A stretch of 64,000 nt of DNA from NCBI RefSeq assembly GCF_036507355.1, contig NZ_AP027877.1; one strand, given 5' to 3'. The translations under genes were made by a program, and so were the position numbers. Source of the stretch: Escherichia coli (GTDB taxonomy: Bacteria; Pseudomonadota; Gammaproteobacteria; Enterobacterales; Enterobacteriaceae). This document shows positions 6,857 through 49,565 of the stretch, one piece after another; the first letter of the stretch is position 1; each line of letters starts with the position of its first letter. The notes below the pieces were generated by a model that saw nothing but the letters and a program-made list of their open reading frames with translations, had not been told where the DNA came from and searched no databases.

Positions 6857-6865
6857 CGTTTTTCA
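6857..6865. repeat. IS1 target-site duplication, left copy (CGTTTTTCA)
   Basis: 9 bp immediately left of the IS1 inverted repeat, identical to 7634..7642. Confidence 0.85.
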
Positions 6866-6920
6866 GGTGATGCTGCCAACTTACTGATTTAGTGTATGAT
6901 GGTGTTTTTGAGGTGCTCCA

Positions 6921-7196
6921 GTGGCTTCTGTTTCTATCAGCTGTCCCTCCTGTTCAGCTACTGACGGGGTGGTGCGTAACGGCAAAAGCACCGCCGGACA
7001 TCAGCGCTATCTCTGCTCTCACTGCCGTAAAACATGGCAACTGCAGTTCACTTACACCGCTTCTCAACCCGGTACGCACCAGAAAATCATTGATATGGCC
7101 ATGAATGGCGTTGGATGCCGGGCAACAGCCCGCATTATGGGCGTTGGCCTCAACACGATTTTACGTCACTTAAAAAACTCAGGCCGCAGTCGGTAA
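6921..7196 (+). CDS. insA: IS1 protein InsA
   Basis: 91-aa [43 protein letters not shown]... (zinc-finger/HTH InsA). Confidence 0.9.
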
Positions 7197-7618
7197 CCTC
7201 GCGCATACAGCCGGGCAGTGACGTCATCGTCTGCGCGGAAATGGACGAACAGTGGGGCTATGTCGGGGCTAAATCGCGCCAGCGCTGGCTGTTTTACGCG
7301 TATGACAGGCTCCGGAAGACGGTTGTTGCGCACGTATTCGGTGAACGCACGATGGCGACGCTGGGGCGTCTTATGAGCCTGCTGTCACCCTTTGACGTGG
7401 TGATATGGATGACGGATGGCTGGCCGCTGTATGAATCCCGCCTGAAGGGAAAGCTGCACGTAATCAGCAAGCGATATACGCAGCGAATTGAGCGGCATAA
7501 CCTGAATCTGAGGCAGCACCTGGCACGGCTGGGACGGAAGTCGCTGTCGTTCTCAAAATCGGTGGAGCTGCATGACAAAGTCATCGGGCATTATCTGAAC
7601 ATAAAACACTATCAATAA
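7115..7618 (+). CDS. insB: IS1 InsB reading frame (transposase made as InsAB' by -1 frameshift)
   Basis: 167-aa -1-frame ORF overlapping the insA 3' end; slippery A6C motif TTAAAAAACTC at about 7171-7180. Confidence 0.85.
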
Positions 7619-7633
7619 GTTGGAGTCATTACC

Positions 7634-7642
7634 CGTTTTTCA
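7634..7642. repeat. IS1 target-site duplication, right copy (CGTTTTTCA)
   Basis: 9 bp immediately right of the IS1 end, identical to 6857..6865. Confidence 0.85.
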
Positions 7643-7821
7643 TTAAACCATCAGCCAGCCCCATAATATAAGGAGCCTGGGTAATACCGATAAGTACGTT
7701 TTCTTCTCTACGCAGAGAGATAACGCCCTCTAAAATAACGAAAGTATCTTCGCTATTGACATCACTGGAAAATATAACTTGCTTTTCATTATTAAACTCG
7801 AAGCGCGTACCGTATCTGGAC

Positions 7822-7939
<118 letters not shown>

Positions 7940-7961
7940 TATTTCTTCGGAGTGAAGAATA

Positions 7962-8132
<171 letters not shown>

Positions 8133-8150
8133 TGAATCGCCACGGATAAT

Positions 8151-8963
8151 CTAGACACTTCCGAGCCGTTGATAATACTGGTTTTCATATTCTGTCGGTG
8201 ACATCTGATCGCTGGAACCATGCCGACGCTTACTGTTATAAAACATTTCGATGTAATCAAAAATATCGCTGCGGGCTTCTTCCCGCGTTCCGTAGATCTT
8301 TTTCTTTATCCGTTCGCGTTTCAACAACTGGAAAAAGCTTTCTGCAACCGCATTATCATGGCAGTTACCGCGACGGCTCATGCTGCCATCCAGGCCGTGT
8401 GATTTCAGGAACGACTGCCACTCATGGCTTGTGTACTGACTGCCCTGATCCGAATGAACCAGCACCTGTTTTTGGGGATTACGGCGCCATACAGCCATCA
8501 GCAGTGCGTTCAGGACAATGTCCTTTGTCATCCGGGATTGCATGGACCAGCCGATAATTTTGCGTGAGAACAGATCAACAACCACGGCAAGATACAGCCA
8601 GCCTTCGTGGGTCCTGATGTAGGTTATGTCCGTTACCCAACGCTTATCCGGAGCATCCGGATTGAACTGTCGCTGGAGCCTGTTGGGCGACACGATACTG
8701 GCCTCGCCTTTACGTGCCCGCGGGCTCCGGTATCCGACCTGAGCCTTTATCCCGACACGTTTCATCAGTCGCCAGACTCTGTTCACTCCGCACTGTTGCC
8801 CGCTGTCCCGCAGATCCAGATGGATTTTGCGATAACCATAGACGCATCCCGATTCCAGCCAGAACTGTTTAATCTGCCCTGTCAGCCTCAGGTCTGCCTG
8901 ATGGCGTTGTGAATGCGGCTGCTGAAGCCAGGCGTAAAAACCACTGGGATGAACATCCAGCAC
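8151..8963 (-). CDS. IS3-family transposase OrfB (DDE integrase domain)
   Basis: 270-aa ORF with DDE-type motifs (...WVTDITYIRTHEGWLYLAVVVDLFSRKIIGW..., ...LVHSDQGSQYTS..., ...AVAESFFQLLKRE...). Confidence 0.9.
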   Translation of the reverse strand: MLDVHPSGFYAWLQQPHSQRHQADLRLTGQIKQFWLESGCVYGYRKIHLDLRDSGQQCGVNRVWRLMKRVGIKAQVGYRSPRARKGEASIVSPNRLQRQFNPDAPDKRWVTDITYIRTHEGWLYLAVVVDLFSRKIIGWSMQSRMTKDIVLNALLMAVWRRNPQKQVLVHSDQGSQYTSHEWQSFLKSHGLDGSMSRRGNCHDNAVAESFFQLLKRERIKKKIYGTREEARSDIFDYIEMFYNSKRRHGSSDQMSPTEYENQYYQRLGSV

Positions 8964-9019
8964 CCGACAGAGCAGGCGAACAGGCCAGCAACAGGTGTTG
9001 TCACGGATAAAGGCGTACC

Positions 9020-9304
9020 TCAGTCGGACAGCTTTGCGAAGTACGCCGCGGCTTTTTTTAATATGTCCCGTTCGTCGGTAACCCGCTTCAGCTCTTTCTG
9101 GAGACGGCGGATCTCGGCCTGAGCATCTGACTGTTCTTTATTAGCGGAAGAATCCGGACCGTACTTCTTTATCCAGGCGTAAAGGCTGTGGGTGGTGATA
9201 TCGAGACGTGTTGCAACGCTGGCAACAGAATAACCGCGATCAACAACCTGTTTGACTGCTTCAATTTTAAACTCTTCGGGATAACGCTTACCGCTCATGG
9301 GCAC
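9020..9304 (-). CDS. IS3-family OrfA (HTH/leucine-zipper protein)
   Basis: 94-aa ORF MPMSGKRYPEEFKIEAVKQVVDRGYSVASVATRLDITTHSLYAWIKKYG... Confidence 0.9.
   Translation of the reverse strand: MPMSGKRYPEEFKIEAVKQVVDRGYSVASVATRLDITTHSLYAWIKKYGPDSSANKEQSDAQAEIRRLQKELKRVTDERDILKKAAAYFAKLSD
9040..9062 (-). other. Probable programmed -1 ribosomal frameshift site of the IS3-family element
   Basis: An A7 run on the coding strand (T7 at 9053-9059 on +) sits in the 0 frame as ttA AAA AAA Gcc near the OrfA 3' end, as in IS3-family OrfAB frameshift windows. Confidence 0.6.
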
Positions 9305-9361
9305 CTCTCTTTAAGCCATCTTAAATGACTCTGAGGTGTCTGTTAAACCCGTGGCGATTCA

Positions 9362-9699
9362 CCATGAATCAGGGAGTTGCTGATGTTCAACTGGTTTGTT
9401 GTTCCATCAGTAAAGTCATGATTCAGGTAATATGTAGAGATAGCCCCGTTAACAGTGTCACCATTAAAGGTGGTATCGAAATCACCGTTTGTGTTGTTAT
9501 AGTAGACAAAGCCACTATAATTCACATAGTTACCATCTACAGTACCCGGTGCATCCATATTGCTCCAGTCAAGAGCAGTAGTTGGATTGTCGTAATAAGT
9601 CCAGGTGTCATAAGTAGTTGCATTAGCCTGAGAGGTGATAGCCAGAGTGCAAGCCAATGCTAATTGTGATACTACAAGTTTCTTTTTCCAGGAGTGCAT
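9362..9699 (-). pseudogene. 5' remnant of an autotransporter-like gene (yaiT-like), signal peptide and start of passenger
   Basis: ORF begins MHSWKKKLVVSQLALACTLAITSQANA (Sec signal) followed by a Tyr/Asn/Thr/Asp-rich segment; the frame runs into the IS terminal repeat and stops. Confidence 0.55.
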
Positions 9700-34981: not shown

Positions 34982-35758
34982 ATGAAAATTACGCAAATTC
35001 GTAATGCCACCCAAATTATCCAATACGCTGGCAAAACATTTCTTATCGACCCGTTACTCGCGCCTAAAGGAAGTTATCCGGGTTTTGCCGGAACGGCACG
35101 CGCAGAAATCCGCAATCCAACGGTAGAATTACCGTGCGATTTAACAACGTTACTCAACGTTGACGCCCTAATCGTGACCCATTTGCATGAAGATCATTGG
35201 GACGAAACAGCCTCCCGCGTCGTCCCTAAAGATAAACTGATTTATGTGCAAAATGAGCAAGATGCGGAATCACTGAATAAACAAGGATTTACGCATCTTA
35301 CCGTACTTACCGACGAGACTAAATTTGGCGATATTACTCTGCATAAAACGACAGGGCAGCACGGCTCCGATCGCACCTATGCCGACCCGGCGATGGCGAA
35401 GCGTTTAGGCGCAGCCTGCGGCGTTGTTTTCCAGCACCCGACAGAGAAAACGCTCTATCTGGCTGGCGATACCCTCTGGCGTGACGACGTCGAGGCTACA
35501 ATGCTAACTTTCCAACCAGAAGTGGTTGTGTTGAATGCCGGATTTGCGCATGTTCTGGGGCATGGCGCGATAATTATGGGAGCAGAAGATATTCTCAAAA
35601 CACATTTTACCCTGCCAGAAGCGCAAATTGTCGCGACACATATGGAGGCCGTAAACCACTGTTTGCTGACGCGTGATGCGCTCAAGGAATACGCCAGAGA
35701 TAATCAAATTATCGAATTTGTGAACGTACCAGAAGATGGTGAAACGTTGACATTCTAA
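34982..35758 (+). CDS. Metallo-beta-lactamase-fold hydrolase (HxHxDH motif), function unknown
   Basis: About 258 aa from MKITQIRNATQIIQYAGKTFLIDPLL... with metal-binding motif THLHEDHWD; not part of the K-12 mhpR-lacI interval as I recall it. Confidence 0.75.
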   Translation: MKITQIRNATQIIQYAGKTFLIDPLLAPKGSYPGFAGTARAEIRNPTVELPCDLTTLLNVDALIVTHLHEDHWDETASRVVPKDKLIYVQNEQDAESLNKQGFTHLTVLTDETKFGDITLHKTTGQHGSDRTYADPAMAKRLGAACGVVFQHPTEKTLYLAGDTLWRDDVEATMLTFQPEVVVLNAGFAHVLGHGAIIMGAEDILKTHFTLPEAQIVATHMEAVNHCLLTRDALKEYARDNQIIEFVNVPEDGETLTF

Positions 35759-35777
35759 TTCGGAGATAAAGAGTGTT

Positions 35778-36731
35778 ATGCGCCCGCTAACTGTTGCCAT
35801 TATCGCCGTTGCCGGTTTTAGTCCTTTTCACCTTTCCGTACCGTTTATCGTATTTAGCGAAAAAATGGCGGAGAAAAAACACTTTCACGTAATTATCTGC
35901 GCTGAAAAGCCGGGAAACGTGGACTCTGCCGATGGGTTTTCCGTAACCGCCACCCATGACTATACCGCAGTCATCCAGGCGGATATTGTGATAATTCCTT
36001 ACTGGGGAACAATTACACAAAAACCGCCACAAAAACTGCTGGAAGCCTTAACGACCGCACGGGATAACGGCGCACAGATTGTCGGGCTTTGCCTGGGCAC
36101 GTTTGTGCTCGGCTATGCAGGTTTACTGAAAAATAAGCGTGCCGCCACGCACTGGGAGTTCGAGCGTGAATTTCAGGCACGTTTTCCACAAACACATCTG
36201 GATATTAACGCGTTGTACGTAGACGATGACGGCATTATTACCTCTGCCGGTACTGCCGCGGCGCTGGATTGCTGTTTGTATATTGTTCGGCAACATTTTG
36301 GCAGCGACTATGCTAACCATATTGCCCGACGGATGGTCGTACCGCCATATCGCACCGGCGGTCAGGCGCAGTTTATTGAGCAACCAGTGCCGAAAAATAC
36401 CCATGATGAACGCATTAATCTCCTGCTGGATTACCTGCGGCAAAACATTGCGCAACAGCATGATCTCGACTCGCTGGCGCAGCGAGTAATGATGAGTCGC
36501 CGCACATTAACTCGCCATTTTATGAAAGCGACCGGTTCGAGTATCGCCGAATGGCTCATTACTGAACGCTTACGCCGTAGCCAGGAACTGTTGGGATCCA
36601 GTCAGTTGCCCGTTGAGCGGATAGCGGCTGAGGTGGGTTTTCTCTCACCTGTGACCTGGCGTCAGCATTTTAAATCTCACTTCGGCGTCAGCCCCGCCGA
36701 ATGGCGCAAAACCTTTCGCGGTATGGCATGA
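35778..36731 (+). CDS. AraC-family regulator with N-terminal DJ-1/PfpI-like domain (GlxA-type)
   Basis: 317-aa ORF; N-terminal class-I glutamine-amidotransferase-like fold with GLCLG elbow; C-terminal AraC HTH (...RRTLTRHFMKATGSSIAEWLITERLRRSQELL...GFLSPVTWRQHFKSHFGVSPAEWRK); its last about 30 nt are the lacI promoter. Confidence 0.8.
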   Translation: MRPLTVAIIAVAGFSPFHLSVPFIVFSEKMAEKKHFHVIICAEKPGNVDSADGFSVTATHDYTAVIQADIVIIPYWGTITQKPPQKLLEALTTARDNGAQIVGLCLGTFVLGYAGLLKNKRAATHWEFEREFQARFPQTHLDINALYVDDDGIITSAGTAAALDCCLYIVRQHFGSDYANHIARRMVVPPYRTGGQAQFIEQPVPKNTHDERINLLLDYLRQNIAQQHDLDSLAQRVMMSRRTLTRHFMKATGSSIAEWLITERLRRSQELLGSSQLPVERIAAEVGFLSPVTWRQHFKSHFGVSPAEWRKTFRGMA

Positions 36732-37934: not shown

Positions 37935-41047
<3,113 letters not shown>

Positions 41048-41053
41048 TAATAA

Positions 41054-42352
<1,299 letters not shown>

Positions 42353-42355
42353 GCA

Positions 42356-42400
42356 ATCAATGTCGGATGCGGCGCGAGCGCCTTATCCGACCAACATATC
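42356..42400. repeat. REP element between lacY and lacA
   Basis: tgtcggatgcggcgcgagcgccttatccgacc. Confidence 0.75.
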
Positions 42401-42417
42401 AGGACGGAATGATCGCA

Positions 42418-43027
42418 ATGAACATGTCGATGACAGAAAGAATAAAAGCAGGCAAGCTATTTACCGATATGTGCGAAGGCTTACCGGAAAAAAGACTTCG
42501 TGGGAAAACGTTAATGTATGAGTTTAATCACTCGCATCCATCAGAAGTTGAAAAAAGAGAAAGCCTGATTAAAGAAATGTTTGCCACGGTAGGGGAAAAC
42601 GCCTGGGTAGCCCCCCCGTCTATTTCTCTTACGGTTCCAACATCCATATAGGCCGCAATTTTTATGCAAATTTCAATTTAACCATTGTAGACGACTACAC
42701 GGTAACGATCGGTGATAACGTATTGATTGCACCCAATGTTACTCTTTCCGTTACGGGACACCCTGTACACCATGAATTGAGAAAAACGGTGAGATGTACT
42801 CTTTTCCGATAACGATTGGCAATAATGTCTGGATTGGAAGTCATGTGGTCATTAATCCAGGCGTCACCATCGGGGATAATTCTGTTATTGGCGCGGGTAG
42901 TGTCGTCATAAAAGACATTCCACCAAACGTCGTGGCTGCTGGCGTTCCTTGCCGGGTTATTCGCGAAATAAACGACCGGGATAAGCAATATTATTTCAGA
43001 GATTACAAAGTTGAATCGTCAGTTTAA
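42418..43027 (+). pseudogene. lacA: Galactoside O-acetyltransferase gene with two -1 frameshifts
   Basis: The LacA-like sequence sits in three frames: MNMSMTERIKAGKLF...ENAWV (frame 1, stop at 42649-42651), [55 protein letters not shown] (frame 3), [24 protein letters not shown]...KVESSV (frame 2); the shifts coincide with a C7 run (42611-42617) and an A5 run (42782-42786). Confidence 0.8.
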
Positions 43028-43029
43028 AT

Positions 43030-43105
43030 TATAAAAATTGCCTGATACGCTTCGCTTATCAGGCCTACAAATTCAGTGATCTACGTAGGCCGCATCCGGC
43101 GTGAA
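43030..43105. repeat. REP element(s) between lacA and cynX
   Basis: gcctgatacgcttcgcttatcaggcctac ... gtaggccgcatccggcgtgaac. Confidence 0.75.
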
Positions 43106-43129
43106 CAAAGCGCAGAAACAAGCGTCGCA

Positions 43130-44284
43130 TCATGCCTCTTTGACCCACAGCTGCGGAAAACGTGCTGGTGCAAAACGCAGGGTTATAATCATCAGCCCAA
43201 CGACGCACAGCGCATGAAACGCCCAGTCCATCAGGTAATTGCCGCTGATACTACGCAGCACGCCAGAAAACCACGGGGCAAGCCCGGCGATGATAAAACC
43301 GATCCCCTGCATAAACGCCACCAGCTTGCCAGCAATAGCCGGTTGCACAGAGTGATCGAGAGCCAGCAGCAAACAGAGCGGAAATGCGCCGCCCAGACCT
43401 AAACCACACACCATCGCCCACAATACCGGCAATTGCAGCGGCAGCCAGATAAAGCCGCAGAAACCCACCAGTTGTAACGCCAGTGCCAACAGCAAAAGTT
43501 TGCGCCGATCCTGATGGCGAGCCATAGCAGGCATCAGCAAAGCTCCTGCGGCTTGCCCAAGCGTCATCAATGCCAGCAAGGAACCGCTGTACTGCGCGCT
43601 GGCACCAATCTCAATATAGAAAGCGGGTAACCAGGCAATCAGGCTGGCGTAACCACCGTTAATCAGACCGAAGTAAACACCCAGCGTCCACGCGCGAGGA
43701 GTGAAAACCACGCGAACCGGAGTGGTTGTTGTCTTGTGGGAAGAGGCGACCTCGCGGGTGCTTTGCCACCACCAGGCAAAGAGCGCAACAACGGCAGGCA
43801 GCGCCCACCAGGCGAGTGTTTGATACCAGGTTTCGCTATGTTGAACTAACCAGGGTGTCAGGGCGGCACCAAGCCCACCGCCGCCCATCAGAGCCGCGGA
43901 CCACAGCCCCATCACCAGTGGCGTGCGCTGCTGAAACCGCCGTTTAATCACCGAAGGCATCACCGCCTGAATGATGCCGATCCCCACCCCACCGAGCAGT
44001 GCGCTGCTAAGCAGCAGCGCACTTTGGGGGTAAAGCTCACGCATCAATGCACCGACGGCAATCAGTAACAAACTGATGGCGACGCTGCGACGTTCGCTGA
44101 CATGCTGATGAAGCCAGCTTCCGGCCAGCGCCAGCCCGCCCATGGTAACCACCGGCAGAGCGGTCAACAGGGCAGCCACGCTAAAGCTCATTCCGCTTGC
44201 CTGGCGCAATTGCGGTAGCAGTGGCCCGACGGAGGTGAGCAGTGGTCGCATATTAAGACCAATCAGCACCAGAACCAGCAGCAT
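43130..44284 (-). CDS. cynX: Cyanate transporter (MFS)
   Basis: About 384 aa from MLLVLVLIGLNMRPLLTSVGPLLPQLRQASG...; the track ORF extends to 44311. Confidence 0.9.
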   Translation of the reverse strand: MLLVLVLIGLNMRPLLTSVGPLLPQLRQASGMSFSVAALLTALPVVTMGGLALAGSWLHQHVSERRSVAISLLLIAVGALMRELYPQSALLLSSALLGGVGIGIIQAVMPSVIKRRFQQRTPLVMGLWSAALMGGGGLGAALTPWLVQHSETWYQTLAWWALPAVVALFAWWWQSTREVASSHKTTTTPVRVVFTPRAWTLGVYFGLINGGYASLIAWLPAFYIEIGASAQYSGSLLALMTLGQAAGALLMPAMARHQDRRKLLLLALALQLVGFCGFIWLPLQLPVLWAMVCGLGLGGAFPLCLLLALDHSVQPAIAGKLVAFMQGIGFIIAGLAPWFSGVLRSISGNYLMDWAFHALCVVGLMIITLRFAPARFPQLWVKEA

Positions 44285-44316
44285 CGTGAACGTCTTTTGA
44301 TGGTTACGCATGGCTG

Positions 44317-44805
<489 letters not shown>

Positions 44806-44817
44806 TTAAAAATAAGG

Positions 44818-45477
44818 TTACGCTGCGGTCGGTTGGCGTAGCGGTATGGCACAAACGCGAGGATTAGCGGCCAGTGGCACAAACTGGCGGGTTGCGCCGT
44901 CAAACGCTGCGATGCTGCCGCTTTCAATATCGTAGACCCAGCCGTGCAGGGCGATCCGCCCCTCTTCGAGCGCCAGGCGCACCGATGGATGAGTTTGCAA
45001 ATTAGCCAACTGAGCAATGACGTTTTCACGTACCATCGCCGCAGCTTTTGACGGTAAATCGGAATGCGGGCGCGCCTCATTAACGACGCGGGCTGAATCG
45101 GCATAACGCAGCCAGTGGGAGACGGCAGGCATATGGTCCATGCACTGACAGCTGGCAATGGCGGCCATCGCGCCACAGTTGGAATGACCGCAAATCACAA
45201 TGTCAGATACCCGAAGCGCAGCGACGGCATACTCCACCGAAGCAGAAACGCCACCGGGTTCCGGCCCGTAGGAAGGGACGATATTGCCCGCGTTGCGAAT
45301 AACGAACAGATCGCCAGGCTCACGTTGCGTCACCAGCTCAGGGACCAGACGGCTGTCGGAGCAGGAGATAAAAAGTGTGCGCGGGCTTTGCTGTGTCGCC
45401 AACTGTTTAAATAAGGCTTCCCGCTTCGGAAATGCCTCGCGCTGGAATTTAAGGAATCCATCAATAATCTCTTTCAC
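44818..45477 (-). CDS. cynT: Carbonic anhydrase (beta class)
   Basis: 219-aa ORF with beta-carbonic-anhydrase motifs (CSDSR, HSNCGA). Confidence 0.95.
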
Positions 45478-49151: not shown

Positions 49152-49299
49152 GAAATTCCCCCTTTTTGCTGTTTGAAACCCAAAAAATCCGCCGCATTCT
49201 ATTCATCTGAAGATAAAAAGCAATCGTTTTCGTGGGGAAATATATTTTTTATATGAATGAGTGCAAAAAGGTGGGGGAAAATTATCGGTGTAAAAACAG

Positions 49300-49565
49300 T
49301 GGGCAGGCATGATAAGACGCGTCAGCGTCGCATCAGGCATCTGAGCATGGTGTCGGATGCGGCGCGAGCGCCTTATCCGACCTACGGTTCAGGCCTGTAG
49401 GCATGATAAGACGCGTCAGCGTCGCATCTGGTATCAGCGCAGGGTGTCGGATGCGACGCGAGCGCCTTATCCGACCTACGGTTCAGGCCTGTAGGCATGA
49501 TAAGACGCGCCAGCGTCGCATCAGGCATCTGCGCACAACTGTCGGATGCGCCACGCGACGCATCC
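49300..49565. repeat. Tandem BIME array (about three REP-pair units, roughly 94-bp period)
   Basis: catgataagacgcg(t/c)cagcgtcgcatc...gtcggatgcg...gcgccttatccgacctacggttcaggcctgtagg repeated head-to-tail between codB and prpE. Confidence 0.85.

Follow-up and report, generated by a model that had tools for sequence, protein, structure and literature searches.

The lacA gene of the Escherichia coli genome analysed here is interrupted by two single-base deletions, and it is very probably a genuine, recently formed pseudogene that has been inherited by descent within a small E. coli lineage. The window, by which is meant the whole stretch of 64,000 nucleotides that was analysed, carries both deletions within an otherwise conventional lac operon, and the same two lesions are found in separately deposited assemblies of related genomes. 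This is the ordinary decay of a dispensable gene, already present in GenBank as a hypothetical-protein fragment.

The lac operon and the reading frames of lacA

Translation of the locus in three frames distributes LacA among all of them: frame 1 encodes residues 1-64, frame 3 encodes residues 66-123 and frame 2 encodes residues 125-203. The features of the window on which the argument depends are as follows.

lacZ, 37973-41047, + strand: intact, full-length ORF of 1024 aa
lacY, 41099-42352, + strand: intact, full-length ORF of 417 aa
lacA pseudogene (galactoside O-acetyltransferase), 42418..43027, + strand: 610 nt where 612 are expected
Fragment A, 42418..42651, + strand: the sole piece with the native start; 64 native residues, then a 13-residue out-of-frame tail, APPSISLTVPTSI, and TAG at 42649-42651
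Site 1, 42610..42617, + strand: G followed by C7; the ancestral codon 65 (GAC, Asp) minus its A, with the gap at 42610/42611
Fragment B, 42612..42785, + strand: native codons 66-123 in the second frame, without a start codon of its own; reads on to a stop at 42810-42812
Site 2, 42782..42786, + strand: A5, ancestrally A6 (AGA AAA AAC, Arg122-Lys123-Asn124)
Fragment C, 42788..43027, + strand: native codons 125-203 and the stop in the third frame; a 77-aa ORF from the ATG at 42794
yahN (LysE-family transporter), 57546-58216: -1 frameshift, C5 to C4, with the lesion at 57910-57913

The ATG at 42418 and the TAG share one frame. An initial annotation of this DNA had already described LacA sequence spread over three frames, with a C7 run at 42611-42617, an A5 run at 42782-42786 and this premature stop, and these coordinates are exact; its statement that lacZ and lacY are intact is equally sound, the lengths of both matching those of annotated references. 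lacA lies between lacY and cynX, as it does in reference genomes, and the order lacZ-lacY-lacA-(cynX cynS cynT) is that of the annotated references, with lacA as the third gene of lacZYA. The genes cynX, cynS and cynT are on the opposite strand, and beyond them are cynR, codA, codB and the prp operon. Codon arithmetic puts the codon for His115, which we take from structural work on LacA (1KRR) to be the catalytic residue, at 42759-42761, inside the start-less fragment B.

Restoring the two missing bases gives a protein of 203 aa that scores 467.1 bits against the NCBIfam equivalog NF007076, across model positions 1-203, and that can be aligned with PDB 1KQA along its entire length. The curated cut-off of this model is 347 bits and applies to the whole-protein score; fragments A and C reach 138.5 and 167.8 bits, respectively, both below it. 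Since the fragments fall under the cut-off and the repaired gene lies above it, the locus is classed as a pseudogene derived from lacA and not as a functional member of the family, and an uninterrupted ORF of ~203 codons with the hexapeptide-repeat domain and His115 is not found at this locus. The start-bearing piece has been deposited as an 80-aa product read from an upstream ATG at 42409 (BED23589.1, 'hypothetical protein VEE46_33570', on a 4.64-Mb contig), and the same 80-aa truncated product is encoded on two further contigs, one of them belonging to GCA_905398585.1.

An Rfam scan of the lacA locus gave no match or other structure, and promoter and terminator scans of both strands of the locus found no site above background. 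A REP-like repeat is present in the lacY-lacA spacer (42361-42403), and several copies occur in the codB-prpE spacer (49300-49560), where the copy number varies among strains.

Nature of the two lesions and the ancestral allele

Alignment to intact lacA genes of complete genomes reveals exactly two one-base gaps in the lacA of the window. The nearest intact allele is carried by a metagenome scaffold (L025), which matches the window over 42353-43130 (778 bases) apart from two bases missing from the window, both of them A, the first at 42610/42611 and the second within the run at 42782-42786. Over the longer interval of 42239-44904 (2,666 bases) the two sequences show zero substitutions, the two lacA deletions being their only differences, which argues that the pseudogene is very young. 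Because L025 is otherwise identical, the ancestral sequence can be fixed as GTA GAC CCC CCC GTC at site 1 together with A6 at site 2.

At site 1 the intact alleles of L025 and of a second locus, L024, read GTAGACCCCCCCGTC where the window reads GTAGCCCCCCCGTC, and at site 2 every intact allele reads GAGAAAAAACGG where the window reads GAGAAAAACGG. Given an ancestor with GAC and C7, site 1 is a loss of the lone A of codon 65 and not a contraction of C8 to C7. Comparison of the alleles thus indicates a deletion that adjoins the homopolymer at site 1, with the C run at its ancestral length of 7, and a plain contraction of A6 to A5 at site 2. Two -1 frameshifts at homopolymer runs had been proposed initially, a description that holds for site 2 and fails for site 1, where a lone A was lost beside an unchanged C7. 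The intact state had likewise been given as C8 with A6, whereas the true intact state is GACCCCCCC (GAC7) with A6. A C8 run would encode an Ala65 protein, which is absent from a collection of ~15 billion proteins; exact look-up of the reconstructed ancestral proteins in the same collection finds the Glu65 form to be common and the Asp65 form to be rare, with the latter encoded on two contigs, L025 among them.

Site 1 is variable among intact genes, which read GTA GAA CCA CCC GTC in TUM13936, ATA GAA CCA CCT GTC in strain W, GTA GAA CCC CCC GTC in O157:H7 and GTA GAC CCC CCC GTC in SK1144. The substitutions relative to K-12 that the initial annotation had cited in favour of a real mutation are common natural alleles, seen in intact lacA, and are silent on the deletion. 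There is a point of method here, in that apparently supporting 'substitutions' proved to be allelic variation and the question was settled by comparison with sister assemblies.

Recurrence of the lesions in sister assemblies

At least three assemblies, each deposited separately, carry both lesions: the window genome (locus tags VEE46_...), GCA_905398585.1 and GCA_016660925.1. GCA_905398585.1 matches the window without a single difference across 20,243 bases, both lesions included, and in a further comparison of 21,452 bases a single SNP and a single indel separate the two, namely the changes at 62505 and in yahN; the coordinate offset means that the window cannot be part of the 79-kb contig of that assembly. 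GCA_016660925.1, to which the PrpD and LacZ alleles led as lineage markers (PrpE is too conserved to single out close relatives), has both lesions together with SNPs of its own at 42953, 49630, 56285 and 58562, and it therefore represents a different isolate. The exact LacZ protein of the window is confined to this lineage (5 contigs), and among the relatives defined by LacZ and PrpD alleles no member carrying only a single lesion was found.

Beyond this lineage, neither lesion occurs in the 5,426 complete RefSeq E. coli genomes, more than 4,500 of which have lacA as a single uninterrupted frame; among the complete genomes the best match reaches 99.3% across 801 bases, and the corresponding figures are 98.4% for site 1 and 98.6% for site 2, each match falling short by the gap. 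The exact mutated pattern of site 1 is also missing from a contig set with one genome per species, a result without meaning here, as that set consists of species representatives and the strain is not one of them. An exact search with the 77-aa C-terminal product retrieved mainly contig-edge calls and error-rich long-read assemblies and has no bearing on whether the lesions are real, and searching the literature for the accessions, or for lacA pseudogenes of natural isolates, gave nothing relevant. When the window (~64 kb) is compared with close references, yahN alone has a further coding indel, all other gaps being intergenic or within REP repeats.

Since the lesions are reproduced in separate submissions, one of which is a distinct isolate, they are best regarded as inherited mutations and not as base-calling errors. 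The earlier preference for a genuine pseudogene over an assembly error is thereby upheld, as the two lesions have an identical form, to the base, in assemblies of related isolates that were deposited separately.

Alternative explanations

It is very improbable that the lacA of the organism is in fact intact and that the two missing bases are assembly or base-calling errors at or near homopolymers, even though such tracts are involved at both sites and all four single-base gaps relative to O157:H7 are losses from the window at runs. Error-rich long-read assemblies (L006, L007 and L015) produce the same type of contraction at the same spot, with A5 or A4 at site 2, and they resemble the window in that genes of the same operon are split by the loss of single bases at runs of A and C; in those assemblies, however, many neighbouring genes are broken, with lacY and cynX split, whereas in the window the neighbours are whole and several assemblies reproduce the lesions. 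The C4 run in yahN is private to the window assembly, which may therefore not be wholly error-free, but the lacA lesions are shared with two other separately submitted draft assemblies, and the distinct isolate among them has SNPs of its own. Site 1, as the loss of a lone A beside a run of unchanged length, is moreover unlike the usual homopolymer miscall, and apart from yahN the window has no further coding indel where a poor assembly might have left many broken neighbours.

A second alternative takes the lesions to be real and inherited but not the outcome of simple neutral decay. A transient mismatch-repair-deficient (mutator) phase, or positive selection for the loss of lacA, could be suspected from two indels with no substitutions in the 2,666 bases compared with L025, an unusual ratio, the more so with both indels in one gene of 612 bases. 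In the codB-prpE intergenic region, moreover, the G run at 49273 is G5 in the window and in the sister contigs L043 and L044 and G6 in O157:H7 and L024, a lineage-wide homopolymer change from G6 to G5; one member of the lineage adds the private C5-to-C4 change in yahN, and lacA has often been lost outright and independently (~10% of complete genomes). The counts are tiny, however, and the ratio is biased, because the locus was flagged for its two frameshifts and L025 was picked as the nearest allele, so that either version of this explanation is unlikely. Selection for the loss of lacA would in any case explain the first hit only, and site 1 is atypical as a product of slippage; no repair genes lie within the window. 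Functional recoding, in which programmed frameshifting or phase variation at C7 would still give active LacA, is barely credible. The C7 run is moderately prone to slippage, and slipping by +1 there would bring site 1 back into frame, but bypass or reversion would be needed at two separate lesions. The uninterrupted frame of lacA in the more than 4,500 complete genomes, with either lesion in 0 of 5,426, speaks against a conserved frameshift site, and neither an Rfam element or other structure at the locus nor the C8 (Ala65) form in the protein collection was found.

Proposed course and consequences

The pseudogene is best explained by two separate single-base deletions in an ancestral allele that encoded Asp65. 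At codon 65 (GAC), directly 5' of C7, the A was lost, and the A6 that spans codons 122-124 became A5. Translation from the native start would then yield only a product of 64 native residues and a nonsense tail of 13 residues, and because it would be without the whole of the hexapeptide-repeat beta-helix, including His115, no transacetylase could be formed from it; LacA enzyme activity is thus predicted to be lost. LacA is not required for lactose catabolism, and as lacA is also the last gene of the operon, lactose use is expected to be unaffected and the functions of lacZ and lacY should persist. Relaxed selection is a probable reason for the persistence of the lesions. The strain would accordingly ferment lactose normally while having no thiogalactoside transacetylase.

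Compared with the LacA of K-12 (PDB 1KQA/1KRR/1KRU/1KRV; NF007076), the window has the gene at the same locus, last in lacZYA and adjoining cynX, and the repaired protein aligns with 1KQA over all 203 residues with few substitutions; the difference is that in the window the frame is broken twice and the start-bearing fragment ends after 64 native residues. In practical terms the locus should be labelled a lacA pseudogene in place of two 'hypothetical proteins', and there is little import beyond annotation.

Loss of lacA across E. coli

A clean deletion of the whole of lacA, with lacY and cynX retained, is present in 532 of the 5,426 complete genomes (~10%) when matches to the junction are counted at full coverage. 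The junction (L033:18052-18131) leaves lacY ~79 bases from cynX and was seen in four loci (L029, L031, L033 and L034). A deletion of such frequency indicates that lacA is dispensable in nature and that its loss is commonplace. The outcome is the same as in the window, that is, a lacZ+ lacY+ lacA- operon in natural isolates, but by deletion the entire gene is gone (equivalent to 42374-43114 of the window), whereas the window lineage has kept the gene body, which was inactivated by two point deletions along an independent path that is much rarer. The pseudogene is thus one more independent example of the ease with which lacA is lost, and it fits the long-standing view of lacA as unneeded for lactose use.

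Other features of the window

The frameshift in yahN leaves a truncated N-terminal product, 131 aa long when read from the first ATG and deposited in a 118-aa version as BED23603.1, together with a C-terminal ORF of 60 aa, BED23604.1. The C4 run is private to the window genome, the sister contigs L043, L044 and L045 and all other loci having C5, and the change could equally be a real, recent and private mutation or a residual homopolymer error of the window assembly. A private synonymous SNP lies at 62505 in an ABC-transporter permease gene, with TTG here and CTG (Leu) in L043, L044 and L045.

An IS3-family element at ~8130-9361 lies in the ehaB autotransporter region (~6865-9619); in strain Res13-Sevr-PER07-33 ehaB is interrupted by an annotated IS3 transposase to which this element aligns, and the flanks do not align to that reference. 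Between mhpR and lacI (~34982-36731) are genes for an MBL-fold hydrolase and a GlxA-family regulator, which are also found in O157:H7 and which we take to be absent from K-12. Within lacZ, short and highly divergent patches at ~39562-39565 and 40567-40572 show paired, compensating gaps relative to O157:H7, L024 and L025, a pattern that suggests mosaic recombination in an ORF that remains intact at 1024 aa.
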